Assembly: GCA_016932575.1 (NCBI GenBank) | Contig: JAFGCO010000011.1 | Location: 10,851 to 74,850 of the forward strand | Length of the DNA stretch: 64,000 bases | Direction: 5' to 3' | DNA from: a bacterium | Lineage (GTDB): Bacteria; Zhuqueibacterota; QNDG01; JAFGCO01 | Part shown: positions 2,009 through 33,731 of the stretch, in pieces | Numbering within the stretch: position 1 is the stretch's first letter | How the letters are laid out: each line of letters starts with the position of its first letter | Position numbers and translations under genes: made by a program | The notes under the pieces: generated by a model | Told to the model about the DNA's origin: nothing | What the model saw: only the letters and a program-made list of their open reading frames with translations | Database searches by the model: none

Positions 2009-2018
2009 GCGATCCCAT

Positions 2019-2034
2019 TGGCATGGTAGTTGCA
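2019..2034 (+). promoter_or_regulatory. Sigma-54 (RpoN) -24/-12 promoter, TGGCAT-N5-TTGCA
   Basis: Perfect match to the consensus TGGCAY-N5-TTGCW (cccatTGGCATggtagTTGCAaatt). It sits ~55 nt upstream of the first start candidate of the 1706-aa ORF. Confidence 0.6.
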
Positions 2035-2088
2035 AATTAATTATAGTTAATTCAATAATTTGTATCGGTTTGATAGAAGAGAACACTA

Positions 2089-5000
2089 TTGAAAGGCATA
2101 TTGAGGAAATGCACAGTGAAGCTCCCCCCTGAAAGCATCGGGGAAACTTCATCTGTAAGGAATCAGTTTATTCTATTGTCTCGAAAGCACCCGCTGAGCA
2201 GATTCAAGCGGGCTTTTATTGTTATTATTCCCGTTTTGTTCCTTTTTTCTGATTGCGGCAATAAACAATCATTTCACGACAGAACCATTTGCATTGATCA
2301 AAAGCGCTTCTTCTCAGTTAGATTCGATCCGTCGTATTACTATGATGTGGATTTAAAGGTTCCTGCGCTTTGTGAAGAACTCGTTTCGAACTGGAAAGAG
2401 AGCGGGATCAATACGGTTTATGTGAAGGTCTATGATCCGCTGTACGGCGCGGTATACAAGACCCGATACATACATAATATCCAGACGGATTACGGCAGAC
2501 TGAATCTGCTCAAGTCCCTGATCAAGACCGGCCATAATCATGGGATTCAAATATTTGCGTGGATTCCGGCCTTTCAGCATAAACAGGTATGGGAGGCACA
2601 TCCGGAGTGGCGCAGCAAACAGGCGGATGAAACCGACTACCAGCCGGATGAAAACAGCTGTCATCTCTGCGTCAGGAATCCGGAATACGGAAAATGGTGG
2701 ATCGGATTTGTGGAAGATCTGCTGAAGCGGTACAGGGATCTGGATGGTGTGGATATCGCCGAACCCGTTGTCAGCTGGAAACCGGATAAGGTCTGCTATT
2801 GCCGCCATTGCCGGGAGGCTCAGAACCGAATGAGTGACAGCTATGGAACGACAAAGAAGGATGCTTTTGAACTGACCCGTTCAGCGGCACTCACATCACT
2901 CATTGAAGAGACATGCCGGCTGGTTCATTCACACGGCAAGCCGGTTTCTGTGACATCTCTCACAACTGCCTATAGCGAGGGCTCCCTTTATTCCGCCCGG
3001 GAACAACAGTCCGCTACGGGATTCGATCTGGAGGCGGTTCTTGAGCTTGAGCATAAACCCGATATCATCAATATGGAAATCCTCTGGCAGGAATGGGCCA
3101 ATTTCTGGAATGACACCACCCTGTTTCAACCGGAATGGACCAAGCAGGCTGTACGGGAAGTGATAAAACAAGTGGATAATCGCAGCAAACTGGTGATTCA
3201 CGTCGAAATGACACCTCTGGGGGATATTCAGGTTCCGGATAAAATGTTCGTCAGATCGATATACGCGGCCCTTGACGGAGGGGCTCAAGGCATTGATTTC
3301 TACGATTCGCATCAGGCGGACAACCGCGGACTTTGGCCGCGGATTAAACAGGCCCTCGGTTATACCCCGTTGAAAAAGATTCTGGTCTATCATGATCCTG
3401 ATTATTTGCAGGATGCCAGACAGCTGGAAGTGCTGCTCCGGCATTTTCGAACAGATACGGAATTGAGGCCCCTGGAAAACAGTTTTTCTCCATCCGATTT
3501 GTCGGGTACGGATTGCATTTTTTATGTGGGTAACGAATACCGTGCATCTCTGCCTGAACGGTTTATACAGGCTGCTGCCGGATTTGACGGAACCGTTTGC
3601 TGGATCAATGAAAATATTCACGCATTGAAAGATGCCGGACTGTCCGGGCTGGGTTTTCATTATCAGGGCTATGATGATACGACCCGGTATGAGATTGTTT
3701 ATCAGGGAACGTCTTTTAATAAAGATAATAATTCGCTTCATCTGATTGATGTGGATCGCCCGGATCGCTGCCATATCATGGCTTCCGCCAGATCCGGTGA
3801 AAAGGAAGTGCCATACATCGTTCGAAGCGGACTCTTTTGGTATGTGGCCGATCTGCCTTCAAACTATATGACAGAGGGCGGAAGGCATATTGTTTTTGCG
3901 GATCTGCTTCATGATATTCTGCGGGAAGACCATATCGAAAAGCATTTGGCGCTGGTCCGGATTGAAGATGTCAATCCCACGTCTCATCCGGAATATCTCA
4001 GATCTATTGCCGATTACTTACACTCTCAGGACGTTCCTTTTTCGGTGGGCCTGACTCCATTCTATCTCGATCCTTCTGAAAACACAGCCATTTCCATTTC
4101 TGATCGTCCTGATTTGACCGATGCGCTGCATTATATGGTCTCGCGGGGAGGTACTGTCATTCTGCATGGATGTACCCACCAGTATCGTGGGCAATCGACT
4201 ATTGATCATGAATTCTGGGACGGAATGAACAATCGGCCCCTTTTTGAAGATTCTGAAGTTTATGTGGAGGAACGGTTAGAGAAAGCGATCAACGAGTGTT
4301 TTAAAAATGATATCTATCCTCTGGTCTGGGAGACACCTCACTATGCCGCTTCTCAGATTGACTATCGGGCAATTAACCGGTTCTTCAGCACCTGTTATGA
4401 AAGAAGACAAACCGTGGATGTTCTGGGATCTGATCAATTGTTGCCCTTTTACATTCCCGCGCGGGCGGGTAAAGCAACGATGATTCCTGAAAACCTGGGA
4501 TATGTTCCTATAGACGATCCCTCTCCTGAAACCATTGTGCTCAACGCACAAAAAAACCTGAGGATCCGGGATGGATTCGCCAGCTTCTTTTTTCATCCTT
4601 TCGTTCCGCTGGAGTCTCTGAAACAAATCATACCCGGTATCCAGGATTTGGGATATACGTTTGCCAGTATCCGATCGATCGACAATCAGGTGAAGGCCGC
4701 TTCCCAAACCGTCATCAGCGGTCAGAACGATCTGAAAATTGATGTCAATGACCAGTATTTCCGGGAATTCTATTTGACTCAAAAAGGCAAAAAGAAACAT
4801 CAGCGAATCAGTGAAAAAAAACTGTCCGAACCCATGGAAAAATCGGTGGTTTGTCCCCAGGACTGGCTTTATGTGGCCAGCGCGCTGGATGTCAGGGATA
4901 AAAAATTTCCGGCAACCCTGCTGGCATCGTTTGACAAGGCACCCTTCGGTCTGGGACATTTCCTTCAGCCGCAGCCTCTGAAGGCGGCCAGTACTACCAT

Positions 5001-7209
5001 TGCCCCTCTTTTCATTGTCGATTCATCTGCCACAGGAAAACCGGCCAGTAGCCAATCCAGTTTAATCAATGCCTTCGAGGCTGCAGGCATCGATTATCAA
5101 ACCGTTCCGGTCCGCGAATTTCTGGACATTCCGAATCATGTCGATATGATCATTGTCCCGTTTGCTGCCGGCCGGAATCTTTCAGAACAACAGATTCTGT
5201 TTATTTTAAGGGCCCTTTCACGCGGCTTGAGAATCATTATGGAAAAAGAGACGCCTTTAAGTGAACGGATCGGGATTATGGGCATCGGCGATTCGCTCAC
5301 TGTGAGTATGGTCCGGGATGAATACTATCCGCAAGTGGATATTCAATGGAAAGAAGCGGATACGTATCGCCGTTTTGATGTGCCCATCGATTATGTCACC
5401 TATTATTCAGAAAAAAACACCGGCAATCCTCTGGTGATAGGCGGTGAATTCGGTGAGGGCATGTATCTTTACTTTGCCACGCTGTTTGATCCCACCACAT
5501 CAAAAGGGTATGGCCGATATCCGTATTACTGTGATCTTCTGCAGCGGCAATTTGACTCATGGCCTCTCGTAAAAAGAGAGTCTGCGGAGATATATTTTGA
5601 GCCGGGTGACCGGGAGGATGTAAGCATAGAAGAGCTGGTTAATCTGTGGAAAAAGAGTGGTTTCAGAACCATCTATGTTGCCGGCTGGCACAGGTATCCG
5701 GACTGGACCTATGATTATAACCAACTCATTGAGTTGGCGCATCAATACGCCATGGAGGTTTATCTCTGGTTTGAACTGCCCCATGTGAACGTCGCTTTTT
5801 GGAACGAACATCCCGAATGGCGGGAGAAAACAGCCACAGGTGAGGACGCGATCATTGAATGGCGGCATTTTATGGCGCTTAACAATCCAGCCTGTCTGAA
5901 TGCGGTCTGCTCGGAATTGTCCTATTTAATTCAAAAATATGACTGGGACGGGATAAATTTCGCCGAGCTCTACTTCAGTTCTCCCCTCGGGCCTGATCGT
6001 CCCGATCTTTTTACGCCCATGAACGCATCGATAAGAAATAGATTTTCCCTGTTATATGGATTTGATCCTGTACAGCTTTTTGATCCTGCTTCATCCTTCT
6101 ATTGGCGAAAAAACAGGGCAAAATGGGAACAGTTCCAGCGATTTCGGCAGGACTTGGTCATTGAACTCCATGATGTTATACTTTCCTTTTTACATCGGGA
6201 AATAGCCAAAAAGCAGAGCGATATGGAAATTGTGGTGACCGCTCTGGACAATATCCATGCCAGACAAACGGGGCTGGGGACAGCAATGGATACCCGGCGT
6301 TTGATTGAACTGGGCGAAAGGCTGCCCTTTACCCTTCAAATTGAAGATCCCTTCGAGTTATGGCATTTGGGACCTTCCCGATATGACCGCCTTTCCCGAA
6401 CATACAGAACATGGCTGCAGGAACCGGAGAAACTTATTTTTGATATCAATGTGGTTCCCTATCGTTCGTTTAAACTGACCATGGCCCCGACAAGACAGCC
6501 GACGGGTCTTGAATTATATCATTTTCTGAAAAGTGCCTCTCAGGATCAAAACCGTGTCGCACTTTACTCCGAGTCAAGTATTTATATGGTTGACCTGCCC
6601 TGGATCTCTTATGCTCTCGGACAATATACCGAAGAGACGTTGTCGCCGTATCGCTGGGAAATTCATACAGAAAACACAGTCACTGTGGACATGGATCCGG
6701 ATAGTCATAAAGACCTGATGGTGAACGGATCATTTTGGCCGGCGTACTTTAATGGTCGCTTGATGCTTCCCCCGGGAGATCATGAGATCGAGTCCGTTTC
6801 AGGGATCAAGGGATTTGCCAAATCCTTAAATACAACAACCCGCCTTGTGGATATCAGCGGAGAGCTAAAATCCTGCCGTCTGAATCATCAGGGGATCGAC
6901 GTGACTTATGAATCTCCGGTCCGAAATTATATCATTGTCAATGAAAAACCAAAGAAAATTATGGTGGACAATACATATTATGAGAGCTGGGTGCGAAAGG
7001 GGAAAAAAGGGTATTCTCTCACCGTTCCATCCGGAATGCATACAATAAAAATTATCACACAGAGTTCGGGCAGCCGATCTTTGAGAAACTTCAGCATTGT
7101 TTCTTCAGTCACCCTTGTTCTGATAAGCGGACTGGCAGGTTTCATTTTACTTGGGCTCTATATCACCGGCGCCTTGAGAAGACACCGTCGCAACAAGCAT
7201 TCATCCTAA
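2089..7209 (+). CDS. Large (1706 aa) membrane-anchored polysaccharide-modifying protein. Domains in order: N-terminal TM/lipoprotein-like signal, glycoside-hydrolase-like TIM barrel (GHL10/DUF187-like), DUF2334 deacetylase-like domain, unknown domain, second GHL-like barrel, beta-sandwich, C-terminal TM.
   Basis: There is no in-frame ATG near the N-terminus. The start is TTG at 2089 (weak SD) or GTG at 2116 (GAGGA 8 nt upstream). Hydrophobic segment KRAFIVIIPVLFLFSDCG. GHL-like motifs GINTVYVKVYD, GHNHGIQIFAWIPAF, WEAHPEW, CYCRHC. DUF2334-like segment DVPFSVGLTPFYLDPSEN...TVILHGCTHQY. Second barrel GFRTIYVAGWHRYPDW...HPEWREK. C-terminal TM VTLVLISGLAGFILLGLYITGALRRHRRNK. Domain assignments are from memory of the families, not a search. 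Confidence 0.6.
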   Translation: MKGILRKCTVKLPPESIGETSSVRNQFILLSRKHPLSRFKRAFIVIIPVLFLFSDCGNKQSFHDRTICIDQKRFFSVRFDPSYYYDVDLKVPALCEELVSNWKESGINTVYVKVYDPLYGAVYKTRYIHNIQTDYGRLNLLKSLIKTGHNHGIQIFAWIPAFQHKQVWEAHPEWRSKQADETDYQPDENSCHLCVRNPEYGKWWIGFVEDLLKRYRDLDGVDIAEPVVSWKPDKVCYCRHCREAQNRMSDSYGTTKKDAFELTRSAALTSLIEETCRLVHSHGKPVSVTSLTTAYSEGSLYSAREQQSATGFDLEAVLELEHKPDIINMEILWQEWANFWNDTTLFQPEWTKQAVREVIKQVDNRSKLVIHVEMTPLGDIQVPDKMFVRSIYAALDGGAQGIDFYDSHQADNRGLWPRIKQALGYTPLKKILVYHDPDYLQDARQLEVLLRHFRTDTELRPLENSFSPSDLSGTDCIFYVGNEYRASLPERFIQAAAGFDGTVCWINENIHALKDAGLSGLGFHYQGYDDTTRYEIVYQGTSFNKDNNSLHLIDVDRPDRCHIMASARSGEKEVPYIVRSGLFWYVADLPSNYMTEGGRHIVFADLLHDILREDHIEKHLALVRIEDVNPTSHPEYLRSIADYLHSQDVPFSVGLTPFYLDPSENTAISISDRPDLTDALHYMVSRGGTVILHGCTHQYRGQSTIDHEFWDGMNNRPLFEDSEVYVEERLEKAINECFKNDIYPLVWETPHYAASQIDYRAINRFFSTCYERRQTVDVLGSDQLLPFYIPARAGKATMIPENLGYVPIDDPSPETIVLNAQKNLRIRDGFASFFFHPFVPLESLKQIIPGIQDLGYTFASIRSIDNQVKAASQTVISGQNDLKIDVNDQYFREFYLTQKGKKKHQRISEKKLSEPMEKSVVCPQDWLYVASALDVRDKKFPATLLASFDKAPFGLGHFLQPQPLKAASTTIAPLFIVDSSATGKPASSQSSLINAFEAAGIDYQTVPVREFLDIPNHVDMIIVPFAAGRNLSEQQILFILRALSRGLRIIMEKETPLSERIGIMGIGDSLTVSMVRDEYYPQVDIQWKEADTYRRFDVPIDYVTYYSEKNTGNPLVIGGEFGEGMYLYFATLFDPTTSKGYGRYPYYCDLLQRQFDSWPLVKRESAEIYFEPGDREDVSIEELVNLWKKSGFRTIYVAGWHRYPDWTYDYNQLIELAHQYAMEVYLWFELPHVNVAFWNEHPEWREKTATGEDAIIEWRHFMALNNPACLNAVCSELSYLIQKYDWDGINFAELYFSSPLGPDRPDLFTPMNASIRNRFSLLYGFDPVQLFDPASSFYWRKNRAKWEQFQRFRQDLVIELHDVILSFLHREIAKKQSDMEIVVTALDNIHARQTGLGTAMDTRRLIELGERLPFTLQIEDPFELWHLGPSRYDRLSRTYRTWLQEPEKLIFDINVVPYRSFKLTMAPTRQPTGLELYHFLKSASQDQNRVALYSESSIYMVDLPWISYALGQYTEETLSPYRWEIHTENTVTVDMDPDSHKDLMVNGSFWPAYFNGRLMLPPGDHEIESVSGIKGFAKSLNTTTRLVDISGELKSCRLNHQGIDVTYESPVRNYIIVNEKPKKIMVDNTYYESWVRKGKKGYSLTVPSGMHTIKIITQSSGSRSLRNFSIVSSVTLVLISGLAGFILLGLYITGALRRHRRNKHSS

Positions 7210-7228
7210 TTCTTAAGGAATCGCTCCC

Positions 7229-8512
7229 ATGCCTTTCGAATCCATTGTGATCAACATTTTATTCCTGTTTTCTGTCTCTGTCATCTGGGTGATGATTCTC
7301 TATCAGCTCGTCCTGACCTTTTACGGGCACAGACACCGCCGGGCCATGGAAAAACGACTGGCAGAAGCCGACTGGCCGGATGCGTCATTGCCTCCGGTAT
7401 CCATATTGGTTCCTGCGAGGAACGAAGAAGTTGTGATTGCCCGGACTCTGGATAAAATACTGGCACTGGATTATCCGGCTGAAAAAATGGAAGTGATTGT
7501 GATCAACGACGGTTCAACCGACAAGACCCAGGCCATCCTTGAACAGTACAAGAAAAAAGACAGCCGGGTAAAGCCCCTTCAGTTACCACCGGCAGAGACC
7601 GGCAGAGGGAAAGCCCGTGCCCTGAATGCGGGCTTCCGGATAACCCGGTATGATTATATCGCCGTTTATGATGCAGACAACAATCCGGAAGCTTCCTCTT
7701 TAAAAACACTGGTTCGGGAACTGATGGAAGACACCGCGGTGGGTGCAGTGATCGGTAAATTCAGAACCCTGAATTGGAAGAGGAATATTTTAACACGATT
7801 CATTAATATCGAGACCTTGAGTTTTCAGTGGATTCTTCAGGCAGGCCGGTACAGGGCATTCCAGGTTTCAATATTGCCGGGCACCAATTTTGTGATTCGC
7901 AAAGCAGTTGTTACCGCCTGTGGAGGATGGGATGAAGCAGCGATAACGGAAGATGCGGAACTGAGCGTACGCATTTATCAGATGGGCTGGAAAATTAAAT
8001 TCGTGCCCCATGCGGTCACATGGGAACAGGAACCGGAGAAGTGGGAAGTGTGGATCCGGCAACGGACACGCTGGGTCAGAGGGAATAATTACGTCATACA
8101 AAAATTTATTAAACCGGCATTGGGCCTGAAGAATCGGTTTCTCTTTACGGAATTTCTGTATCTCTTTATTCTCTACTATTTACTGCTGGGCGCCATTGTG
8201 ACCTCCCATCTTCTCTTTATTCTCTGCGGACTCGGAATCCTCAATGTCGATGTGCCCGGGCCCTATATGGCCGTGTGGATACTGGCCTTTATTTTGTATC
8301 TCATGGAAGTGGTGCTTGCTTTGTCTTACGAAGACGAGGATAAACCGCTGAATATCCTCATTACTGCGGTCATGTACTTCACCTATTGTCAGATGTGGAT
8401 CTATGTGGTATTTCGGGGATTTTATCTGGACCTTTTTAAAAAACGGGTCGGAATCTGGGATAAAACAGAACGTCATAATCAGGATGATCTCCTGACTCAG
8501 GATGGAGATTAG
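7229..8512 (+). CDS. Family-2 glycosyltransferase, processive synthase type (PgaC/IcaA/NodC-like), integral membrane
   Basis: SD TAAGGAA 8 nt upstream. N-terminal TM. GT2 core VSILVPARNEEVVIARTLDKILALDYP...VIVINDGSTD. DxD motif YDADN. QxxRW motif QRTRWVRG. C-terminal TM helices. It starts 19 nt after the upstream stop. Confidence 0.8.
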   Translation: MPFESIVINILFLFSVSVIWVMILYQLVLTFYGHRHRRAMEKRLAEADWPDASLPPVSILVPARNEEVVIARTLDKILALDYPAEKMEVIVINDGSTDKTQAILEQYKKKDSRVKPLQLPPAETGRGKARALNAGFRITRYDYIAVYDADNNPEASSLKTLVRELMEDTAVGAVIGKFRTLNWKRNILTRFINIETLSFQWILQAGRYRAFQVSILPGTNFVIRKAVVTACGGWDEAAITEDAELSVRIYQMGWKIKFVPHAVTWEQEPEKWEVWIRQRTRWVRGNNYVIQKFIKPALGLKNRFLFTEFLYLFILYYLLLGAIVTSHLLFILCGLGILNVDVPGPYMAVWILAFILYLMEVVLALSYEDEDKPLNILITAVMYFTYCQMWIYVVFRGFYLDLFKKRVGIWDKTERHNQDDLLTQDGD

Positions 8513-8514
8513 CC

Positions 8515-9387
8515 TTGCATGGTAAATTCTGGCATATTGCGGCAGGAATGTTTCTGGCTGTGAGCAGCTTAATGGGCAGTGAGCCGGATTCATCGGGGAT
8601 TGAATCAAATCCCGATGAAGGAGGATCCGCTGAAATTCATTGGAGCATTTGGGGAGAATTTTATGATGAGTCCATGATTTTTGAGAGTGAAGAAGACAAT
8701 GTGTTCTCCAATTCGCATATCAGGCAGGGGCTGAAAATCAGACATTTGCCGGTCATCAATCTGTTCCAGACGTATATCCTGCTGCGGTACGGACGGGATC
8801 TTCACAGGGATTTTTGGAACAATAAAACCGAGGTCGGCCTGGGGCTCAGGACCCGGTTCTTTAAAAAAATCTTTTTCGCGCCATATGCTGAATATATCTG
8901 CGGATTCTACAACAAGATCCCGGAGGGTCGTCCGCAACCCCAAGCCCGACAGTATACTGATTTAAGAGGAGGATTCATATTCTGGTATGGATGGGACACA
9001 TGGTATTCCCCTGCCTCGCTGATCACGTTTCCCAGACATTTTATCGGTGAGGTATACAGCGAATTGAACTATTTCAGAAAGGACCGTGACAATATCATAT
9101 CGTATACCCACATGAAGGCAGGCATTCGCGCAGTCCGCATTTGGAAATGCGCTTTTGTCGGTTACGGAGCCATGTATATCATGAAGGACAGAAATCGGGA
9201 TTTTTGGAACAATGTCGCTGAAATAGGGCCCGGTTTCTGGATAAAGCCCCACCCTGACGTGGATTTAAAATTTTTTGTGGAATGGCTTCGGGGCTATTAT
9301 TATGGGATTGAGGGCAGGGATGATAATCCCAATCCTCAAATATTCAGTGATCGAAGAATCGGCATTCTGTTATGGATTGGATGGTAA
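8515..9387 (+). CDS. Putative outer-membrane beta-barrel protein (EPS export porin candidate), internally duplicated
   Basis: TTG start 2 nt after the GT2 stop. Signal-like N-terminus MHGKFWHIAAGMFLAVSSLMG. Aromatic-rich alternating pattern. Two copies of the RDFWNN motif ~120 aa apart. C-terminus ...LLWIGW ends in an aromatic residue. Confidence 0.45.
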   Translation: MHGKFWHIAAGMFLAVSSLMGSEPDSSGIESNPDEGGSAEIHWSIWGEFYDESMIFESEEDNVFSNSHIRQGLKIRHLPVINLFQTYILLRYGRDLHRDFWNNKTEVGLGLRTRFFKKIFFAPYAEYICGFYNKIPEGRPQPQARQYTDLRGGFIFWYGWDTWYSPASLITFPRHFIGEVYSELNYFRKDRDNIISYTHMKAGIRAVRIWKCAFVGYGAMYIMKDRNRDFWNNVAEIGPGFWIKPHPDVDLKFFVEWLRGYYYGIEGRDDNPNPQIFSDRRIGILLWIGW

Positions 9388-9433
9388 TATTTTTAACCGA
9401 TCAATCGACTTATTTTGGTAGGAGCAATTTATT

Positions 9434-11290
9434 ATGAAAAAGAGTCTCATGGGGATTGTATTTTATGTCCTGTGCTTTTGGAGCCCGGGAAATTCCCTTG
9501 TTTTTTCCGAAGATATTGCTGCCCTGATCTGGAAGCTGTCTGCCGATCTGACTGTGACATCTATTGCGCCGACCAGTGATATTGACGGGGACAGTATACC
9601 GGACGTCTTTGTGGGATCGGCCGATCATCTGGTCTATTGCCTTTCCGGGAGCGTTATTCGTCAGGGCGAGATACTCTGGTCCTGGAATTTCGGTGCGCCT
9701 GTATGGACAGTGGCCTCTATTCCGGATATTAACAGAGACGGGGCGGATGACTGCCTGGTTGGGTGTGCTGACAATACCATATACTGCATGTCCGGAAATC
9801 CGGTTCAGGGCCTTTCGGAAATTTTGTGGTCGTACGGTGTGGACGGCGATATTTTTACGATAGCGGTTCTGAACGATCTGAATGATGATGGAATCGATGA
9901 CTGTGTGATGGGGACCAATGATGATCAGGTTTGCTGTCTTGACGGGGCATGGGGTCAGGTGCTCTGGTCCTACCGGGATCCGGCAGTTGGCGCCATCAAG
10001 TCGGTGAGTGCCATCTCCGATGTCAACAATGACGGACTGGATGACTGCCTGGCAGGCGGCGAGAATGACAAGGTGGTCTGTCTGTCCGGGGGCAGTACCG
10101 GAAATGGAGATCTGATCTGGTATTGCAATACCCAGAGCACCGTTCTTTCTGTCAACACTATTGAGGATGTGAATGAGGATAACAAGCCGGATTGCCTGGC
10201 AGGCGGAGAGGATAATTTTGTGTATTGTATATCCGGTAGCGGCTCGGGAAAAAATGATCCCCTCTGGCGCTGTGATATGGGCTCAACTGTAAAATCCGTT
10301 TCTTCTATTGCTGATGTCAATCAGGATGGCATATGGGATTGTCTGGCGGGCAGTGAGAGTTGGGACGATAATATTTATTGTATTTCCGGAGTCACTGGTC
10401 ACGTTCTGTGGTCAAATAAACTCCCCAGCAGTGTTCTCAGTGTGTGCTCCATTGATGATGTCAATGACAGCGGGTTTCATGATTGCATTGCAGGGTGTGA
10501 AAATGACCGGATCTATTGTCTTGAAGGAGGACAGGGAACAGCAATCTGGTCTTACGAGACAGGCGGTGCAGTGAACTGCGTGGTGACAGTGGCCGACCTG
10601 AACGGAAACCTGATTGATGACGTGTTAGGCGGGTCCACGGACAGCTATGTTTACGCTTTAGACGGGGGGGATATTTTAATCGAGGTTGTCAGTCCGCCGA
10701 TTGTTCCCACAGGACCATCCGGGGAAGTATCAGAAGGCAAAACCGGCAACCCAATGGTGCTCGTCACAGGCGGATCGGCCAGCAGTTTTCATCATCCGGT
10801 GGAATACCGGTTTGACTGGGGAGATGAAACGGTTTCGGTTTGGGGAGATTCGAGCCGGAGTCATATCTGGGAAGAGGCTGGCTCATATGAGGTCAGAGCG
10901 CAGGCCAGGTGTGCTCTTCATCCAACGGTACTCAGCGAGTGGTCTGATAATGTAATCGTGAAAATTGTTGAAAAGACACTTGTGAACCGCCATCCAGCAG
11001 AAGATGTGCCCATTCATTTCTGCCTTTATCAGAATTATCCGAATCCCTTTAATTTAATGACCACGATAGAATATCAGGTTCCAAAAGCCTGTCAGGTGAC
11101 CATTAATGTATACAGTATCCATAGTCACCTGATCGCATGCATTGTTGATGGATTTTTCGAGGCCGGGAATTATCGAATTAACTGGGAGGGGAGAACCTCT
11201 TCCGGCACCATCGCATCATCGGGCTGCTATATTTACTGCATGAAAGCCGGAGAATATATCGCGGTCAAAGACATGCTTCTGCTGAAATGA
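9434..11290 (+). CDS. Secreted FG-GAP/integrin-like beta-propeller protein (about 8 blades with Ca-binding DxNxDGxxD loops) carrying a T9SS C-terminal sorting domain
   Basis: Signal peptide. Eight repeats of the form DINRDGADDCLVGCADNTIYCMSG. C-terminal ...YQNYPNPFNLMTTIEYQVP...VYSIHSHLIACIVDGFFEAGNYRINWEG...LLLK matches the Por_Secre_tail / T9SS type-A sorting domain. Confidence 0.7.
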   Translation: MKKSLMGIVFYVLCFWSPGNSLVFSEDIAALIWKLSADLTVTSIAPTSDIDGDSIPDVFVGSADHLVYCLSGSVIRQGEILWSWNFGAPVWTVASIPDINRDGADDCLVGCADNTIYCMSGNPVQGLSEILWSYGVDGDIFTIAVLNDLNDDGIDDCVMGTNDDQVCCLDGAWGQVLWSYRDPAVGAIKSVSAISDVNNDGLDDCLAGGENDKVVCLSGGSTGNGDLIWYCNTQSTVLSVNTIEDVNEDNKPDCLAGGEDNFVYCISGSGSGKNDPLWRCDMGSTVKSVSSIADVNQDGIWDCLAGSESWDDNIYCISGVTGHVLWSNKLPSSVLSVCSIDDVNDSGFHDCIAGCENDRIYCLEGGQGTAIWSYETGGAVNCVVTVADLNGNLIDDVLGGSTDSYVYALDGGDILIEVVSPPIVPTGPSGEVSEGKTGNPMVLVTGGSASSFHHPVEYRFDWGDETVSVWGDSSRSHIWEEAGSYEVRAQARCALHPTVLSEWSDNVIVKIVEKTLVNRHPAEDVPIHFCLYQNYPNPFNLMTTIEYQVPKACQVTINVYSIHSHLIACIVDGFFEAGNYRINWEGRTSSGTIASSGCYIYCMKAGEYIAVKDMLLLK

Positions 11291-11326
11291 TTGAAGAGAA
11301 AAACATTTTGGAAGGCTTTGGGAATA

Positions 11327-12445
11327 ATGAGCGGCAATAACCTCTTCAAAATCATGGTCGTCATGGGAACACGGCCGGAGGCCATTAAACTGGCGCCGGT
11401 TGTGCTTGAACTGAAAAAGCAGTCCGATATTCAGCCGGTTATCGTGGCCACTGCACAGCATCGGGAGATGCTGGATCAGGTGCTGGCCCATTTCCTGATT
11501 GCGCCTGATATGGATCTTGATCTCATGATTCCCGACCAGACCCTGTTTCATCTTACAGGAGCGGCCATTCATGGATTCGAAGCAGTTTTCCAAAAAATCA
11601 GGCCCGATTTGATTCTGGTACAGGGAGATACAACCACATCTTTCATCGGCGCACTGGCCGGATTTTATAAAAAAATCAGGGTCGGCCATGTGGAGGCAGG
11701 ACTCAGAACCGGCAACAAGTATTCTCCCTTTCCTGAAGAGATCAATCGAAAATTGGTTTCTGTACTTGCTGATTACCATTTTGCCCCCACGCCGGGCAAC
11801 CGAAAAAACCTGATCGCCGAAGGAGCCGCGCCCGAAAACATTATTGTCACCGGAAATACGGTGATCGATGCATTGCACCTGACCGTGGACGACAATTTCA
11901 CCTCAGAGATGCTCTCCTCACGGGATTATGACCGTTTTATCCTGATCACCGCCCACAGAAGAGAAAATTTCGGCAAACCCCTGGAAAACATCTGCGAGGC
12001 TGTCCGGCAAATGGCCATGCATCATTCAGACTGGATCTTTATGTATCCGGTTCATCTCAACAAAAATGTTCAGGAACCTGTCCGTCGTATACTCAGCGGT
12101 ATGCACAATGTCCATTTGGCCGATCCCATGGATTATTACACCTTTGCCAATTATATGGCCGCTTCCGATCTCATTCTGACAGATTCCGGAGGCATACAGG
12201 AGGAAGCGCCCAGTCTTGCAAAACCGGTTTTGGTTTTAAGAGATGAAACCGAAAGGCCAGAAGCAGTCGAAGCCGGTACAGTGAAAATCATTGGAACGAA
12301 CCTAAAGACGATTATTTCAGAGACGGAATATCTTCTGAAGAACAAAGAGGCATATGAACAGATGACCAGGGCTCATAATCCATACGGCGACGGTAAAGCA
12401 TCGGAAAGAATCGTGACGTTTATTCGAAATACAATCATGTCATAG
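11327..12445 (+). CDS. wecB: UDP-N-acetylglucosamine 2-epimerase (non-hydrolysing)
   Basis: KIMVVMGTRPEAIKLAPVV, GDTTTSF and HVEAGLRT are classical WecB/MnaA motifs. The track start 11291 is TTG. ATG 11327 (MSGNN...) has GGAAGG upstream. Confidence 0.85.
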   Translation: MSGNNLFKIMVVMGTRPEAIKLAPVVLELKKQSDIQPVIVATAQHREMLDQVLAHFLIAPDMDLDLMIPDQTLFHLTGAAIHGFEAVFQKIRPDLILVQGDTTTSFIGALAGFYKKIRVGHVEAGLRTGNKYSPFPEEINRKLVSVLADYHFAPTPGNRKNLIAEGAAPENIIVTGNTVIDALHLTVDDNFTSEMLSSRDYDRFILITAHRRENFGKPLENICEAVRQMAMHHSDWIFMYPVHLNKNVQEPVRRILSGMHNVHLADPMDYYTFANYMAASDLILTDSGGIQEEAPSLAKPVLVLRDETERPEAVEAGTVKIIGTNLKTIISETEYLLKNKEAYEQMTRAHNPYGDGKASERIVTFIRNTIMS

Positions 12446-12492
12446 ATGTATCATTGCTCTAATTGAATAAACCAGTGACAATACTGAATTAT

Positions 12493-14421
12493 TTATATTT
12501 TTGTTTTCATGGCGGTTCGGATTTTTTGCAGTAATGCGACCATCGTATAGGGCTTTTCCAAAAGGGGATACGCCTTCTTTTGAATGTCAGACCATTTGGA
12601 GCTGTATTCAGGATAGCCGCTGGTCAATAAAATGTGAATATCCGGCTTTTTAGCCAATAATGTTTCAACAAGTTCAACCCCGCTTTCACCGGACAATTCC
12701 ACATCACTGAAAACCAGATCAAAACTACCATTTTCTTTATCGAAAACTTCCATGGCCTCTTTGACATTGGCGGCCGCAAAGGTGATAAAATTGTTTTTGA
12801 TTAAAGCTTTTTCCATAAAGGTTCTGACTTTTTTATCATCTTCAACAAAAAGAATACGTTCACCGTTTCCCTTAAGAGACTGGATGGGCAGTTCTTTATT
12901 TGTTTCAATATCCGGATGTTTCGGAACTGCCTCAAAATAGATATTGAAGGTGGTTCCCGTTGCCGGTTTGCTTTTCACTTCAATCCATCCGTTGTGTTCC
13001 TTCACAATACCAAATATCACGGCCAATCCCAGACCTGTCCCCTTATCATGCTTTTTGGTGGTGAAAAAAGGCTCAAAAATACGTTCCAGGGTTTTTTTAT
13101 GCATGCCAACACCCGTGTCCGTTATTGAGAGGCAGACAAAATGACCGGGTCTGGCTTCGGTACTTAGACTGCTTTGCTTCTCAGAGATGGTCACATGCTT
13201 GGTTTCAATGGTCAGCGTGCCGCCTTCGGGCATTGCGTCCCGGGCATTCATGGACATATTCAGGAGAATTTGTTCCAGAGTGCCTTTATCTGCTTTGACG
13301 GAGCACAGATCCTGAAGCAGGGATTCTTTGATCTTAATATGTTCTCCAATCAATCGGCGAATCATATTGGTCATATTTTTAATCAGGACGTTTAAATCGA
13401 GAACCTCAAATGACATGGGCTTGTTGCAACTGAAGACCAACAGTTTGCGTGTTAAATCGGCAGCCTGATCCGCAGAATCCTGAATTTGCTGAATGAATTG
13501 ATAAAGGTTGGACTGCTGTGCCAGGTCCGGAAGGATCAGTTCTGTTGTCCCCCGAATGGCAGTTAAAATATTGTTGAAATCGTGTGCGACACCTCCTGCC
13601 AGGGCTCCTATAGCATCCATCTTGCAAGCCTGTCTGAGCTGCTCTTCCATTTGTTTTTTTTCTGTGATGTTCCGAAAAACCAATACGACACCATTGAGTT
13701 TGCCGCGATCATCCCTGATGGGTGCTGCATTGTCATCAATCGGTATTTTTTTGCCGTTTTTCGCGATGAGCAATGTATTGTTGGTCAGGGAAACGGGCTT
13801 CCCTGTATTCAGCACCGTTCCGACCGGGTCGTTCACCCACTCTGTTTCGTTATCGTTGGTAATATGAAATACCATATTTATGTTTTTACCTATGCCTTCT
13901 TTCTGTGACCATCCGGTCAGTTTTTCTGCACCGGGATTCATAGAAACAATGGATCCTTTCCTGTCTGTTGTGATTACCGCATCGCCGATACAATTTAAGG
14001 TGGTGGAAAGCCATTCTTCATTTGCTTTGAGCTTCTTTTCCATCTCATGCTTATAGAGAGAGATTTCAATGGATGAACTTACCTCTCTCTCATCCAGAGG
14101 CTTCAGTATGTACCCGTAAGGTTCAGCTCGTTTTGCTCTTGTTAAAGTCTGTTTGTCTGAATAGGCTGTTAAAAAAACAACCGGGATATCATAATGCTCA
14201 TGGATATATTCAGCAGCATCGAGCCCTCCCATTTCATCACCCAGCATGATATCCATTAATACCAGATCAGGCCGGTTGGATTGAGTTGATTGAATGGCAG
14301 CTTCTTTTGACCTGACTGAATCGGTGACATGATAACCCAGGTCCTCCAGTCTTTCCTGGATCTCCAGGGCAATAATGTGCTCATCTTCAACAACCAGTAT
14401 TTTTTTCTTATCGGTATTCAT
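12493..14421 (-). CDS. Hybrid sensor histidine kinase/response regulator (REC-PAS-HisKA-HATPase-REC)
   Basis: N-terminal receiver ILVVEDEHIIALEI...DLVLMDIML. PAS. H-box HDFNNILTAIRG. HATPase GTGLGLA. C-terminal receiver ERILFVEDDKKVR...DLVFSDVEL. SD AAGAGG. Confidence 0.85.
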   Translation of the reverse strand: MNTDKKKILVVEDEHIIALEIQERLEDLGYHVTDSVRSKEAAIQSTQSNRPDLVLMDIMLGDEMGGLDAAEYIHEHYDIPVVFLTAYSDKQTLTRAKRAEPYGYILKPLDEREVSSSIEISLYKHEMEKKLKANEEWLSTTLNCIGDAVITTDRKGSIVSMNPGAEKLTGWSQKEGIGKNINMVFHITNDNETEWVNDPVGTVLNTGKPVSLTNNTLLIAKNGKKIPIDDNAAPIRDDRGKLNGVVLVFRNITEKKQMEEQLRQACKMDAIGALAGGVAHDFNNILTAIRGTTELILPDLAQQSNLYQFIQQIQDSADQAADLTRKLLVFSCNKPMSFEVLDLNVLIKNMTNMIRRLIGEHIKIKESLLQDLCSVKADKGTLEQILLNMSMNARDAMPEGGTLTIETKHVTISEKQSSLSTEARPGHFVCLSITDTGVGMHKKTLERIFEPFFTTKKHDKGTGLGLAVIFGIVKEHNGWIEVKSKPATGTTFNIYFEAVPKHPDIETNKELPIQSLKGNGERILFVEDDKKVRTFMEKALIKNNFITFAAANVKEAMEVFDKENGSFDLVFSDVELSGESGVELVETLLAKKPDIHILLTSGYPEYSSKWSDIQKKAYPLLEKPYTMVALLQKIRTAMKTKI

Positions 14422-14443
14422 GATTCGCCTCTTTATTTATAGA

Positions 14444-15865
14444 TCATATTTCGAAAATAATTTTATATTCTGTTCCATTGTTTCGGTTGATTTCCATCAT
14501 GCCATCCAGCTGTTTAATTAAAGTATTGACAAGCCGCAATCCCAGGGTGTTCACATTTTTCATATCAATTTCATCAGGCATTCCAATGCCATTGTCCTTT
14601 ACATCAATAATGGCCCGGTCGCTGTCGATAGTATCTATTTTAATCTTGATCTCCCCTTTGCGGGCATTCGGGAAGGCATGTTTCAGGGAGTTTGATATCA
14701 GTTCATTGATGATCAATCCACAGGGAATGGCCTTGTCAATATTGATTTCGAAATTACCGATTTCCTTATGAATAGAGATATTTAATGAACTAACACGATA
14801 TGACTTGATTAAATAGGATGTCAGACTGCTTATATATTTGGAAAAATCAATATGAACAATATCCTCTGACTGGTACAGTTTTTCATGAATTAATGCCATC
14901 GCTTTAATTCGGTTTTGGCTTTCTTTGAACATTTCTAAAGCTTCATTATTTTTGATTTTCTTGGACTGGAGAAAAAGCAGACTGGAAATAACCTGCAGGT
15001 TGTTTTTAACACGATGGTGAATTTCTTTTAGAAGAATTTCCTTTTCTTCCAGGGAAGCCTTTATTTTTTTCTCTGCACTTTTACGCTGAATCAGCTCTTC
15101 GTGCAATTGCCTTGCCCGGTTCTCAAGTTCATGGCTGGCATTTTGAAGCGCAATATTTTGATTCTGAATTTGTGTCAGCATTTCATTAAACTGCTCAGTG
15201 AAAAAACCCAATTCATCTTCACTTGATTTTTGTGCACGGACTGAATAATCCTGATTCAGGGAAATTTTTTGGGCAACCTTTGCAAGGTGTAAGATGGGTT
15301 CAGAGACAACGCGCTGTAACCGGGTTGTCATCAGGAAACTGACTAAAATCGCCACGAGCAATACCAAAATCACAATAATAAAATTTCGCCTGAGCCTGGC
15401 TTTAATTTCTTCCAGACTTGATTGGATATATACCTTTCCTATTTTTTCCTGATCCAGCATAATATCCCTGTATATAACAAAGTGGTCTTTGTAAAAATAA
15501 GCGCCGTTCTCCTTTGGCATGGGCGGCAAAGACTGAATATCCACACCTTCAATTTTGTACTTTGCAAAAATTTTATCGTTCTTATCATAGATGGCGGCAA
15601 AAAGAATATATTTTTCTGCTTTTAATAAAATGGACAGGGTTTCCTTGGCATCATCTTCATTATCAAAAATTAGTGCTGCAGTGCAGTGATTTCCAATAAT
15701 CTCCGCGAGTGTATCCATCTTATGTTTAATGACTTCCCGATAATTGAGCTGATCTGAAGTGATTAAGGCAGCACAAGCAATAAGAAGCGCAACACTGCTG
15801 CTGAACATTGTGATTGCTGTCAGCTTCTGTTTGATAAAAAGCTTATGGAAAAGCTGCTTTTTCAT
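14444..15865 (-). CDS. Sensor histidine kinase, HisKA_2 family, with a periplasmic sensor domain flanked by two TM helices
   Basis: TM1, a ~125-aa periplasmic domain, TM2, a HAMP-like segment and a coiled coil. HisKA_2 H-box [17 protein letters not shown]. HATPase_c follows. It lies 22 nt upstream of the hybrid kinase. Confidence 0.8.
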
Positions 15866-15871
15866 TTCATT

Positions 15872-16444
15872 CTATTCAAGTGAAGGTTCTGGAATATCTG
15901 CCATTTTCAACAGTTTTGTACTCATCTTTAAACCGGACTGTTTAACAGCTTCGCTGTTGATTTCAAAGCGTATCTTTTTTTTCTTGATAATAAAATTAAT
16001 CATTCCGCCATCTTTGGAAAAATTGGTTTCATCACCCACTGTAAGAATACTGTTATTTTTAATTTTACTGAATATTTGAGACCGCCGGTCTCTGTTGTCC
16101 ACACCAATGAACAGGATATGGCAAGACGACAAATCTTCCAGATTCTGATAGCGCCTGATTCTGAACTCTCGATTTTTTATTTGTTTCCCCTCAATGGTTT
16201 TTTCCAGATCAATGCCATAAGGATCACTGCCGATAATACCAATCACAAACGGTGAATCCGGATTATTGAATGATTCTTCGGGCCAATCCACAAATCTTGC
16301 AAAATTATACAGATATTTGGCCTTGATCTGATACTCTGTCGGAATGACAGTAAATCCCATTTGTGAATAACTATTTGATCCCCCAAGAATTATGATAAAT
16401 ACGGTAAAACATCGGATTGAAATGATGTTAATTTTAGGTAACAT
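15872..16444 (-). CDS. YfiR-like periplasmic protein (DUF4154)
   Basis: Signal peptide from the ATG at 16444 (MLPKINIISIRCFTVFIIILGG); the track start 16477 is TTG. It carries the DUF4154 hallmark YLYNFARFVDWP. It is the first gene of a minus-strand operon with the two kinases. Confidence 0.65.
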   Translation of the reverse strand: MLPKINIISIRCFTVFIIILGGSNSYSQMGFTVIPTEYQIKAKYLYNFARFVDWPEESFNNPDSPFVIGIIGSDPYGIDLEKTIEGKQIKNREFRIRRYQNLEDLSSCHILFIGVDNRDRRSQIFSKIKNNSILTVGDETNFSKDGGMINFIIKKKKIRFEINSEAVKQSGLKMSTKLLKMADIPEPSLE

Positions 16445-16771
16445 ATGTTCTATTTTTGAAATATTTTTCAATTCCAATCAACCCATAAAACATTAATAAA
16501 CAAGATATTATTTCTAAAAATCAATAATAAATCACAATGTTTTATGAAAATCTCTTTTTCATTATGGAATCATGATCCTTTTTATCTCAATTTCATATCC
16601 AGGGGGATTGTTCAGCTGCAGTCGCAGAATGAAGGGATGATAAATCCAGATTTTCCAATAAGGTTACACAGTAAACAAATTTAATCAATGGTGAAGGAGA
16701 AGTTTTATGCTCATCCTTTTCCCCGGTTCCGATATCCTGTTTTTATTAAAACCTGTATTTTTTATGAAATG

Positions 16772-16787: not shown

Positions 16788-17190
16788 GGTTGATATGTGA
16801 ATAACAGGGTAATGTCTATATTCAATTGAATACCGTGTTGCACAGCAGGCGGCCTGCTTTGGTATTGCAGTTAATCAAAATTAAGGACATATGGCACGGC
16901 TGCCGGTTTTTTAAGGGGAGCCATAATTTCATAAAATAATCAGTCAATTTCAGTAATATCAGTTCAATAAAGGCCTTTCTATTTTGGATGATGTCGTCAT
17001 GCCGGCATATTTACATGTCATTCCTTCGATGACGAAACAGCGAACCTGACCTGGCATTATAGTAAAAGATTATGTTTGATAAGAAATAAATAATTAATTA
17101 CATTTACTTGACGAGTACCATCAACAGGGTGTTTTGCTTTGTGTTTCCAATGAGTAAAAATCGATAAATATTTATACCTGAAGCCATGAT

Positions 17191-17706
17191 ATGAAAAACA
17201 AACACACCAAAGAAGCAGCATACTGGATCGAAAAACTCGACCTGAAACCGCATCCGGAAGGCGGGCATTACCGCGAAGTGTTCGCCGGATCGGACCAAAT
17301 CCGGGCCGATGCCCTGCCCCCCGGATTCACTGGCCCGAGAAAAACATACACCTCCATTTACTTTTTACTGGAAAGCCATCAGATTTCACGTCTTCATCGT
17401 TTAAAGTCGGACGAACTCTGGAACTTTTATTCAGGCAGTCCGATTCGGATTCACGTCATCAGGCCTGACGGAACCCATGAAGAGCGTATACTCGGGCCCG
17501 ATCCGGAAAATGGAGAGGCATTTCAGTATTGTGTTCCGTCCGGATGCTGGTTTGGAAGCCTGGTTAGTGAACCCCAAAGCTACGCACTGGCCGGCTGTTT
17601 CGTCGCGCCGGGATTTGATTTTCAGGATTTTGAACTGGGAAGCAGGGAGTCCCTGATCCATACGTTTCCTGAGCACAAGACGATTATCCAGAAATTGACG
17701 TCTTGA
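17191..17706 (+). CDS. Cupin-fold protein, DUF985 family
   Basis: KLDLKPHPEGGHYREVF is the DUF985 signature. Confidence 0.7.
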   Translation: MKNKHTKEAAYWIEKLDLKPHPEGGHYREVFAGSDQIRADALPPGFTGPRKTYTSIYFLLESHQISRLHRLKSDELWNFYSGSPIRIHVIRPDGTHEERILGPDPENGEAFQYCVPSGCWFGSLVSEPQSYALAGCFVAPGFDFQDFELGSRESLIHTFPEHKTIIQKLTS

Positions 17707-17847
17707 ACCATTCATTCCGGCTCAAAAAGGATTTCCATAAAGACAAACAATGCTGAAACCCAATACTTGAACAATGATGCATGATATGCCCTTAAGCAGC
17801 GCTGTTATTTTTTAAAAAATGAATTTATCGTGGGAGGTTAAGACCGA

Positions 17848-18585
17848 ATGGATAAACAAAATGCCTTTTCCACTCACTCCTCATGGAATCATTATTATAA
17901 ATTATGCGGAGTGACGACCCTACTCATGATGATACTTTTTTTATTTGACGTGATAATATGGAGCGTGTTCGGGCCGTACCCAGACTCCGCCGAGGGTTGG
18001 TTCAATCTATTACAGCAAAATCGATTGCTCGGTTTGTCGTTGCTTTCGTTTCCGACTCTTTTGGGTATCATCTTGTATTATATGACATTTCTTGGTCTGT
18101 ACAATCTTTTAAAGAAAATTGAACCGGCTTTTGCATCTCTGGCATTGCTTCTTTCCTTTACAGGTTTGACAATTTTAATAATTACCAATATGGCTTATCC
18201 ACTGGTTCAATTAAATGATCAATATGGTTCTGCCACCTCTGAGGCACAGAAAATGTTATTGATAACAGCAGGCGAGATAAAAATCGTGACTGCTGTGACA
18301 GGTTCGAAGATTGGCGGATTCTTTGCGGAAGGAGCTGCTGTTATTTTTTCAATTCTTATGTTTAAAGATCCTGTTTTCGGTAAAACAGCTGGCTGGCTTG
18401 GCGTCATTGGCCATGGTCTTGATTTTATTCGAATCATTATGACCTTGACCTTCTTGCCGGAGAATATCGGAGCAATACTTTTAATGATCGGCGGTCTGCC
18501 TCAATTTATCTGGTTGATTATTGTAGGAATCAAATTTATTCATTTAGGGCAATTAAAACGAGCACCTGCAACAATCGTGAACTGA
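17848..18585 (+). CDS. Integral membrane protein (DUF4386-like)
   Basis: SD GGGAGG. Six hydrophobic helices. Confidence 0.5.
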   Translation: MDKQNAFSTHSSWNHYYKLCGVTTLLMMILFLFDVIIWSVFGPYPDSAEGWFNLLQQNRLLGLSLLSFPTLLGIILYYMTFLGLYNLLKKIEPAFASLALLLSFTGLTILIITNMAYPLVQLNDQYGSATSEAQKMLLITAGEIKIVTAVTGSKIGGFFAEGAAVIFSILMFKDPVFGKTAGWLGVIGHGLDFIRIIMTLTFLPENIGAILLMIGGLPQFIWLIIVGIKFIHLGQLKRAPATIVN

Positions 18586-33712: not shown

Positions 33713-33731
33713 AAAAAGGGGAGAATCTGGC

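Follow-up and report, generated by a model that had tools for sequence, protein, structure and literature searches.

The eight-bladed β-propellers of Bap1 and RbmC bind Vibrio polysaccharide (VPS) directly, near their pseudo-symmetry axis (PMC10102183; bioRxiv 10.64898/2026.08.03.742583). Here we describe a β-propeller protein encoded in a stretch of 64,000 nucleotides (the window; contig JAFGCO010000011.1, positions 10,851 to 74,850, assembly GCA_016932575.1) from a bacterium of the Zhuqueibacterota. As with Bap1 and RbmC, a predicted secreted, eight-bladed metal-binding propeller with Velcro-type closure is tied genetically to an exopolysaccharide (EPS) system. In contrast to them, it has no β-prism insert, and its gene lies inside a synthase operon, beside that of a porin. 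Bap1 and RbmC are released by the type II secretion system (T2SS), whereas the C-terminal domain (CTD) and immunoglobulin-like (Ig) stalk of the window protein imply covalent or docked display at the surface; the four-tryptophan cradle of Bap1 has no demonstrated counterpart in it. The Bap1/RbmC propeller would be its closest functional analogue, without detectable homology. If the window propeller binds polymer, the principle of an eight-bladed handle on a matrix polysaccharide would have a second, independent example, and this would be the first such protein tethered by a tail of the type IX secretion system (T9SS) type.

To our knowledge, the reference systems of synthase-dependent EPS (alginate, cellulose, poly-N-acetylglucosamine (PNAG) and Pel) all use a porin with tetratricopeptide repeats (TPR). 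The window operon shares with such exporters (PgaA, BcsC, PelB, AlgK/AlgE) an inner-membrane family 2 glycosyltransferase (GT2) and an outer-membrane barrel. Its largest product, hereafter the giant protein, is comparable to PgaB-type modifiers, as a predicted periplasmic protein with glycoside hydrolase-like (GH-like) and deacetylase-like parts. The barrel differs in having 12 predicted strands, against 16-18 in known polysaccharide exporters, and no TPR; in addition, there is a propeller protein with a sorting tail. A PNAG (Pga/Ica) system is rejected: the GT2 scores 162.8 bits against TIGR03937 (PgaC_IcaA), below the cut-off of 422.3, no PgaA or PgaB family is matched and the barrel lacks TPR. 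The GT2 is thus PgaC-related, not an equivalog. We propose that the module is a conserved alternative, in which a YdaL-like mega-enzyme and a GT2 are joined by a small orphan barrel and an obligatory calcium propeller, and that it is hosted by uncultured bacteria of the FCB group and of neighbouring phyla (KSB1, Fibrobacteres, Sumerlaeia and unclassified metagenome-assembled genomes (MAGs)). It is reasonable to regard it as a synthase-dependent EPS system with a putative matrix-binding propeller and an unusual outer-membrane and surface end.

In Bacillus subtilis, ydaL-N, with the GT2 YdaM, drive the production of an unknown EPS (PMC5422440). The DUF2334 domain of the giant protein is the domain named 'YdaL' by JGI. 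The ydaJKLMN system is nonetheless Gram-positive, with no barrel and no propeller, and the giant protein has ~1700 residues and two added GH-like domains; no receptor for cyclic di-GMP of the YdaK type was seen.

Propellers that accompany outer-membrane proteins offer two further comparisons. Like BamB, the window protein has an eight-bladed propeller next to an outer-membrane barrel; it scores above the gathering threshold of PF13360 (PQQ_2; 37.4 vs 27.6 bits) and matches BamB structures in Foldseek (TMt ~0.7). It differs from BamB by a calcium loop in each blade, a CTD and an Ig stalk, and identity with it is rejected by TIGR03300 (21 vs 285.2 bits) and by the lack of a lipobox. The PorZ-PorQ and PorU-PorV pairs likewise combine one or more propeller domains, a C-terminal seven-strand sandwich and a dedicated outer-membrane barrel. 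The polysaccharide to which PorZ binds is anionic lipopolysaccharide, as its NCBIfam description also states. The match to PorU is however limited to the tail (25 vs 420 bits over the full length), and PorZ has two seven-bladed propellers; the window propeller is not PorZ.

The gene module and its conservation

At some 30 loci the module is read on one strand in the order giant protein (GHL6/GHL10 and DUF2334 domains), GT2, barrel, propeller and, often, wecB. From the giant gene to wecB, the gaps in the window are 19, 2, 46 and 0 nt; the propeller gene does lie between those of the barrel and WecB, as the initial annotation of this DNA had it. A scan of positions 1500-12800 for promoters and terminators gave counts not above those of shuffled sequence (24 vs 18.9; 13 vs 10.9), with a sole suggestive promoter-like site at 2018-2047, so that the inference of an operon rests on the gaps of 0-46 nt and the conserved order.

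Orthologues of the propeller protein with 68%, 45%, 33% and 32% identity occur in the same module at each locus, together with a giant protein of ~1650 residues, a GT2 of ~425 residues and a Pfam-less protein of 280-300 residues; the propeller protein itself carries a CTD at these loci. The order giant-GT2-barrel-propeller is found in the window, at loci L001, L003, L005 and L087 and at 16 further metagenome loci, where propeller identity goes down to 36-38%. A metagenome scan with the family of the 290-residue barrel gave 29 loci, whose gene content was established by local BLAST. The order is kept in every barrel locus with enough sequence, except L006 and L109. At L006 (5488-9287), a TRAP transporter precedes a barrel-propeller pair, and both the GT2 and the giant gene are missing; L109 is discussed below.

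Three more MAGs with these genes were reached through homologues of the giant protein. In the one from KSB1 (L119), the propeller has a CTD. The Fibrobacteres MAG (L120) encodes a barrel homologue of 420 residues and an eight-blade propeller that ends without a CTD. In the Sumerlaeia MAG (L121) the order is wecB, two propellers, giant, GT2 and barrel, again with no CTD. The genetic linkage of the propeller to the module is obligatory: orthologues adjoin a GT2 synthase in essentially every adequate locus, in agreement with the earlier proposal that the gene is embedded in a polysaccharide operon, a proposal that would have failed had homologues never been located with glycosyltransferase operons. 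Distant paralogues in WOR-3 and Bacteroidetes stand outside such contexts; the linkage is therefore specific to this orthologous group. The MAGs with the module come from anoxic sediments, springs and digesters. We found no description of a giant-GT2-barrel-propeller module in the literature searched.

The position of wecB is less strict, and the gene goes with the module in most lineages, not in every one. It follows the propeller gene at L001, L002, L004, L090, L091, L096, L103, L114, L117, L119 and L120, is nearby on the other strand at L087 and L105, and lies upstream on the same strand at L121; it was not found in the flanks of L005.

Several loci show variations of the propeller gene itself. 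A second propeller gene stands in tandem after the first at L003 (11901-13220). The two genes of the Sumerlaeia locus encode a 583-residue propeller with a different C-terminal repeat (5854-7605) and a bare propeller of 385 residues (7758-8915). The Fibrobacteres gene (16940-18529) has, after its likely true start, the N-terminus 'GRRRRIWPLLALGLAAGNARA', possibly a twin-arginine signal, which would imply the export of a pre-folded propeller there.

Architecture of the propeller protein

An AlphaFold2 model of the propeller protein, computed with a 40-sequence alignment, has a mean predicted local distance difference test score (pLDDT) of 89.1. Residues 31-409 contain 32 strands, or eight blades of four; they are followed by an Ig domain at residues ~430-495 and a seven-strand sandwich at 530-616. 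The seven-bladed type of integrins and PVL is rejected by this blade count. The protein is above the gathering score of PF13517 (FG-GAP_3; 49.2 vs 26.9 bits) and of PF25292, a propeller of the lambda-carrageenase type (58.8 vs 26.8 bits), and below that of the classic FG-GAP family PF01839 (16.6 vs 22.1 bits). The exact protein is labelled 'PQQ-binding-like beta-propeller repeat protein' at NCBI. Two different motifs succeed each other within a blade. The first half is an FG-GAP unit, with an inner strand, a calcium loop and then 'D-C/V-L-A-G'; the second half is of the PQQ/BamB type, 'x-D-x-x-V-Y-C/A-L-S-G-x-x-G-x-x-L-W'. The blades are FG-GAP/PQQ hybrids, and the protein belongs to the FG-GAP/VCBS repeat superfamily.

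We searched the PDB with a profile of a single blade (49 positions). It matches the calcium-binding blades of integrins alpha-6, alpha-V, alpha-5 and alpha-IIb with E-values from 6.5e-9 to 1e-6, and weakly YesW, a PL11 lyase (2z8r, E 0.011). The match to the fungal lectin PVL (4up4) is borderline (E 0.013) and covers the calcium-loop segment only. A profile of the whole propeller finds designed eight-bladed 'Bagel' proteins, BBS2, ITFG2, integrins and BamB, and sequence searches of the PDB with the whole protein gave nothing useful. In Foldseek, only generic propellers are matched in the PDB (WD40, BamB, BBSome, integrin): the best TM-scores are to eight-bladed propellers, with 0.86 for Ika8, 0.81 for Sqt1 and ~0.73 for YxaL and BamB; the headpiece of integrin alpha-6 comes twelfth, and PVL does not figure among the first 50 matches. 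With matches this generic, the fold search does not tell apart a lectin, a scaffold and an enzyme.

The window propeller has in common with integrins and PVL the DxD/NxDGxxD calcium loop in the A-B hairpin, succeeded by a strand 'hydrophobic-hydrophobic-x-G'. It departs from them by its eight blades, all with the calcium signature, and by the PQQ/BamB-like second half ('YxLxG..G..lW'). In integrins the signature is present in three to four blades, and in PVL in two. The FG-GAP-type propeller with calcium loops that had been proposed from the sequence is thus well supported by PF13517, the integrin blades and the model, while the likeness to PVL is weaker than proposed, in the number of blades and in overall similarity.

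A relaxed calcium-loop motif, D.[ND].[DNS][GNSL]..D, occurs eight times in the protein, at residues 49, 98, 148, 196, 245, 294, 342 and 388, with a spacing of 46-50 residues. When its residues were shuffled 10,000 times, the mean count was 0.06 and the maximum 2; among the other open reading frames (ORFs) of at least 100 residues in the window, only one has the motif, and only once. The eight repeats of the initial annotation are confirmed in this way, their exact wording in part. The literal DxNxDGxxDC is found in blades 2, 3, 4 and 6, and the other four deviate from it at one or two positions each: blades 1 and 8 read DIDGDSIPDV and DLNGNLIDDV, respectively, the G is replaced by N in blade 5, and position 5 is S in blade 7. 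The strand announced as xYC(L/I)SG is present, variants included, in blades 1-7 (YCLSG, YCMSG, CCLDG, VCLSG, YCISG, YCISG and YCLEG, respectively), and is replaced by YALDG in blade 8.

In the model, each loop sits between strands A and B of its blade. Counted over 41 non-redundant orthologues (327 blades), the ligand positions are D15 in 324, N/D17 in 296, D/N19 in 313, G in 275 and D/E23 in 327, and selection appears to act on the eight predicted metal sites. The propeller domain is strongly acidic, with a net charge of -48 and an isoelectric point of 4.05 (50 Asp, 10 Glu, 7 Lys, 5 Arg); orthologous propellers have net charges from -18 to -40. Apart from the calcium loops, a D-[DN] pair is conserved in each blade where strand B turns into strand C. 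These pairs would form a ring of acidic or amide residues on the face opposite the loops.

The protein contains 27 cysteines (4.4%). A pair DC...YC, thought at first to occur in nearly every blade and to stabilise the blades by disulfides, is present in six of the eight. The YC cysteine is found in 78% of the 327 orthologous blades and persists in clades with one DC cysteine (that of L087 and L005) or none (Sumerlaeia); judging from this distribution, it is ancestral. The DC cysteine, in 52% of the blades, is a derived trait of the window's clade, in blades 2-7. The YC position is occupied by alanine in blade 8 and in the PQQ-type 'YALD' motif, which points to a small buried position with no need of a partner. 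DC is associated to about the same degree with the YC of its own blade and with that of the blade before (unpaired cases: 7 and 5, respectively), so pairing within and between blades is not separable by co-occurrence. Going by the register of the strands, the side chains of C107 and C118 should lie on opposite faces of the blade. The pattern of the family argues against an obligatory disulfide; the cysteine pairs are retained for six blades, while disulfide-stabilised blades are unsupported, although disulfides may still occur in this clade.

The N-terminus is hydrophobic in this protein and in all 22 complete orthologues of the clade, and a canonical lipobox ([LVI][ASTVI][GAS]C) was not found in that of the window copy. 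All 22 genes, which encode 600-1439 residues, also share eight blades and a terminal CTD. Between propeller and CTD, from 0 to ~6 Ig modules or other inserts are present. In the window copy the single Ig segment, taken alone, is borderline for PF00801 (23.7 bits vs a gathering score of 23.5). The stalk is plastic in evolution, and the head and tail are fixed. The longest stalks include four to six tandem modules, each a PKD-like 'GHPVEYRFDWGDG' unit plus a Flg_new_2-like unit (L091 8437-12756, L099 3672-6992, L117 10874-14683). At L110 (10707-14966), leucine-rich repeats and ~800 residues of unmatched sequence are inserted between propeller and CTD.

The seven-strand sandwich reaches the C-terminal end of the protein. 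The tail of the window copy scores 19.9-23.2 bits against PF13860 (FlgD_ig), below the cut-off of 27; a profile of the family's tails finds the FlgD Ig domain (3e-8) and PorU (6za2, 0.037) in the PDB. In the family as a whole, TIGR04183 matches 13 of 14 orthologous tails at E≤0.01 (best 5.8e-11), the PorU tail matches all 14 and the PorZ tail 10, and one orthologue (P0018) is labelled 'T9SS type A sorting domain-containing protein' by NCBI. At the level of the orthologue family, then, the CTD is a credible T9SS type-A-like sorting domain, by which the propeller protein would be exported. A scan of genome contigs with the orthologue alignment gave 80 loci, all matched only over residues ~450-618, with the ubiquitous NYPNPFN tail, and no propeller contexts; it shows a wide distribution of the tail in the FCB group. 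Relatives of the tail with 35-46% identity occur in KSB1, Bacteroidota, Ignavibacteria, Calditrichota, Zixibacteria, Cloacimonadota, Marinimicrobia, Latescibacterota and Gemmatimonadota. Within the window, an amidohydrolase of 659 residues (21422-23401, + strand; PF07969, 256 bits) ends in a CTD of the same type, with 36.5 bits for FlgD_ig and 85.8 bits for the local CTD profile. The presence of the same tail on an unrelated secreted enzyme indicates that it behaves like a sorting signal. On the T9SS in KSB1 and related phyla, our literature search found nothing relevant.

Possible roles of the propeller

We tentatively favour a role for the propeller as a surface-displayed acidic head that binds or organises a nascent amino-sugar polymer, and we give it somewhat less than an even chance. 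A lectin or anchor function, as initially suggested, is plausible. The GT2 would polymerise and translocate a polymer of N-acetyl-hexosamine, the YdaL-like giant protein would trim it in the periplasm and probably de-N-acetylate it, and the TPR-less barrel of 12 strands would be its passage across the outer membrane. For the propeller protein, export by the Sec route would be followed, in this lineage, by a crossing of the outer membrane by means of its T9SS type-A-like CTD. Shown at the surface on its Ig-domain stalk, the calcium-stiffened, strongly acidic propeller could then bind the emerging polymer, which would be retained or organised there. Of this picture, the analysis shows the fold, the calcium-loop signature, the order of domains and the genetic linkage; localisation, binding, ligand identity and the electrostatic mechanism are inferred.

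We prefer this role because of the conserved linkage, the head-stalk-anchor build with a variable stalk, the acidic, predicted calcium-binding head and the precedent of Bap1 and RbmC. A variable stalk between anchor and head is typical of surface proteins. The charge of the propeller, together with the DUF2334 domain, which we take to be a member of the deacetylase-fold group, fits a partly deacetylated, cationic polymer. An extracellular role is compatible with both CTD-bearing and CTD-less forms, as the latter could use the T2SS like Bap1, while a periplasmic role is compatible with the CTD-less forms only. The analysis also offers a testable function for proteins labelled 'PQQ-binding-like', 'VCBS' or 'BamB', and a first context for the DUF2334/GHL6 giants.

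Several observations weigh against it. The tail of the window copy, expected at first to be a canonical Por_Secre_tail, is below the cut-offs of TIGR04183 (15.4 vs 23 bits) and PF18962 (18.2 vs 27 bits), so that the T9SS assignment holds for the family and not for this copy by itself; no T9SS machinery genes (PorK/L/M/N, Sov/SprA, PorV, PorU) were found among the ORFs of the 64-kb window. The Fibrobacteres and Sumerlaeia propellers have no CTD: in these lineages the surface would need to be reached by another route, or the conserved role would have to be periplasmic. The invariant tryptophan of each blade lies in the outer strand and is probably structural, not a sugar platform. Sequence similarity to Bap1 or RbmC was not detected among the PDB profile matches listed, the best 60 of 80 at E≤1 for the whole propeller and the best 60 of 64 at E≤0.1 for the single blade; similarity to PVL is borderline and the Foldseek matches are generic, as described above. 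Finally, at L109, a contig of 1595 bp, GT2, barrel and wecB succeed each other with no propeller between them.

The main rival reading, to which we give a rather low probability, is that the propeller is no lectin but an accessory of the export porin, a protein-protein scaffold that stands in for the TPR domain and guides or gates the passage of the polymer. It could do so in the periplasm, like BamB on BamA or the TPR of PgaA, BcsC and PelB, or outside, through a retained CTD, like PorZ on PorQ. Distant relatives of the barrel do carry TPR, while the TPR-less barrel of 290 residues is almost always accompanied by a propeller. At L122, a TPR-barrel (10001-13219) is flanked by a GT2 of 615 residues and a divergent wecB, with neither giant protein nor propeller within 10 kb; the exclusivity of TPR and propeller is, however, based on this single locus. 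The pair without GT2 at L006 and the score of PF13360 with BamB structures among the Foldseek matches also point to such an accessory, but the window protein fails the BamB model by a wide difference in score and has no lipobox. CTD-less orthologues of Fibrobacteres and Sumerlaeia would be periplasmic by default, yet the Sumerlaeia propeller genes are not adjacent to that of the barrel. A periplasmic site is moreover at odds with the CTD of all 22 complete clade members and with Ig stalks of 500-1000 residues. The tails of PorU and PorZ, matched by the CTDs, stay on their proteins instead of being cleaved. A T9SS-delivered propeller could be docked by its retained CTD on the 12-strand barrel, as PorZ on PorQ, and catch the polymer at the pore exit; we hold this particular arrangement to be distinctly unlikely. 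If true, it would be a new outer-membrane architecture for the secretion of synthase-dependent polysaccharides, with a physical coupling of the T9SS to an EPS synthase, and would take over the function that the TPR scaffold has in the periplasm for PgaA, BcsC and PelB.

That the propeller is an enzyme, a calcium-dependent polysaccharide lyase or hydrolase trimming the chain as AlgL, BcsZ and PssZ do, has in our view a low probability. PL11 enzymes such as the rhamnogalacturonan lyase YesW are eight-bladed calcium-binding propellers, which the window protein resembles, and synthase-dependent systems usually include a lyase or hydrolase. The above-threshold score of PF25292 and the weak match to YesW are nevertheless confined to the generic calcium-loop repeat, the best PF25292 stretch aligning residues 47-96 with profile positions 36-82 of 316. 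Conservation among the orthologues follows the repeat consensus, with no catalytic-looking cluster specific to one blade; two GH-like domains are already present in the giant protein, and a distal head on a long stalk suits binding more than processing. The least probable of the roles considered is that of a general adhesin or cargo for other targets (surfaces, cells or host glycans), co-transcribed with the module for co-regulation in biofilms. The combination of FG-GAP/VCBS, PKD and CTD is common in adhesin-like T9SS cargo, paralogues exist outside EPS loci and variable inserts, such as the leucine-rich repeats of L110, suggest outward-facing binding; but the linkage is kept across at least four phylum-level lineages despite changes in gene order, which speaks for a function connected with the polymer machinery.

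Neighbouring proteins

Table 1 Features of the propeller gene and its neighbours in the window.
Feature	Position	Strand	Description
Giant protein	2089..7209	+	1706 aa, membrane-anchored, first gene of module
Domains of giant protein			GH-like TIM region GHL6/GHL10 aa 89-290; DUF2334 aa 621-848; second GH-like region ~1170-1420; transmembrane segment 1667-1690
GT2 synthase	7229..8512	+	427 aa, processive, PgaC/IcaA/NodC-related; 1 N-terminal and 4 C-terminal transmembrane helices
Outer-membrane β-barrel (predicted)	8515..9387	+	290 aa, signal peptide, ends ...LLWIGW
Propeller protein	9434..11290	+	618 aa, ATG start, AGGAG 8 nt upstream
Signal region of propeller protein	9434..9514	+	aa 1-27, Sec-type, MKKSLMGIVFYVLCFWSPGNSLVFSEDI; model: helix 2-15, then low-confidence linker
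Eight-bladed FG-GAP/PQQ-hybrid propeller	9515..10678	+	aa 28-415, calcium-loop signature in all blades
PKD-like Ig spacer, single	10706..10924	+	aa ~425-497, 'HHPVEYRFDWGDE' module; model strands 432-493
C-terminal sorting-type β-sandwich (putative)	11006..11287	+	aa 525-618; NYPNPFN ... SGxY ... K-COOH; T9SS type-A-like, FlgD-Ig fold
wecB	11291..12445	+	Non-hydrolysing UDP-GlcNAc 2-epimerase, supplies UDP-ManNAc; TIGR00236 485.5 vs 210 bits
Regulatory trio	12493..16477	-	Hybrid histidine kinase; YfiR-associated histidine kinase (NF053592, 223.9 bits); YfiR-like periplasmic protein (NF053591, 165.4 bits)

The giant protein is predicted to be a large periplasmic polymer-processing enzyme. It matches DUF2334 with 166.6 bits, GHL6 with 49.6 and GHL10 with 40.8; it begins with a hydrophobic segment and has RRHRRNK after its single C-terminal transmembrane helix. 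Its homologues are named 'YdaL/YddW' by JGI, and no sequence relatives were found in the PDB. In the literature searched we found no link between DUF2334 and EPS synthesis. The two GH-like regions, which flank DUF2334, resemble each other: 'EELV..W K.SG..T.YV' ... 'W.EHPEWR.K' recurs near residues 95-175 and 1180-1265. The GT2 scores 122 bits against the Pfam family Glyco_tranf_2_3.

The protein upstream of the propeller, initially annotated as an outer-membrane barrel, is indeed modelled as such, with 12 long strands and a pLDDT of 83.8; it is presumed to be the export porin of the module. Foldseek gives weak matches only, to porins and autotransporter barrels (TM-score 0.4-0.5), and none of 28 members of its family matches a Pfam or NCBIfam family, even at E≤10. 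A T9SS partner of the PorP/SprF type is rejected, with no PorP_SprF match in the same members at that threshold. Among 1.84 billion representatives, 385 fall into the family at E≤1e-3 and 24 at E≤1e-30. Numerous distant relatives (P0263, P0271, P0288, P0308, P0311, P0319, P0329, P0338, P0395 and the L122 protein are such TPR-barrels) have 540-1240 residues, with N-terminal TPR and a C-terminal barrel, the layout of PgaA, BcsC and PelB. The barrel is internally duplicated: 'HRDFWNNKTEVGLGLR' at residues ~97-112 corresponds to 'NRDFWNNVAEIGPGFW' at ~227-242, and RDFWNN occurs twice. This suggests an origin from a repeated six-strand half-barrel.

The wecB gene probably starts 36-63 nt downstream of the listed TTG. 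Its presence would be consistent with a polymer containing ManNAc. The regulatory trio is convergent to the EPS operon. It is kept at L001 and L004, partly at L090, and not at L005 or L087; only close relatives show it linked to the module. A second YfiR/HmsC-like protein is encoded further along the window (36086-36694, + strand), between a TonB-dependent receptor (33672-35873) and a complete che cluster (36711-45192).

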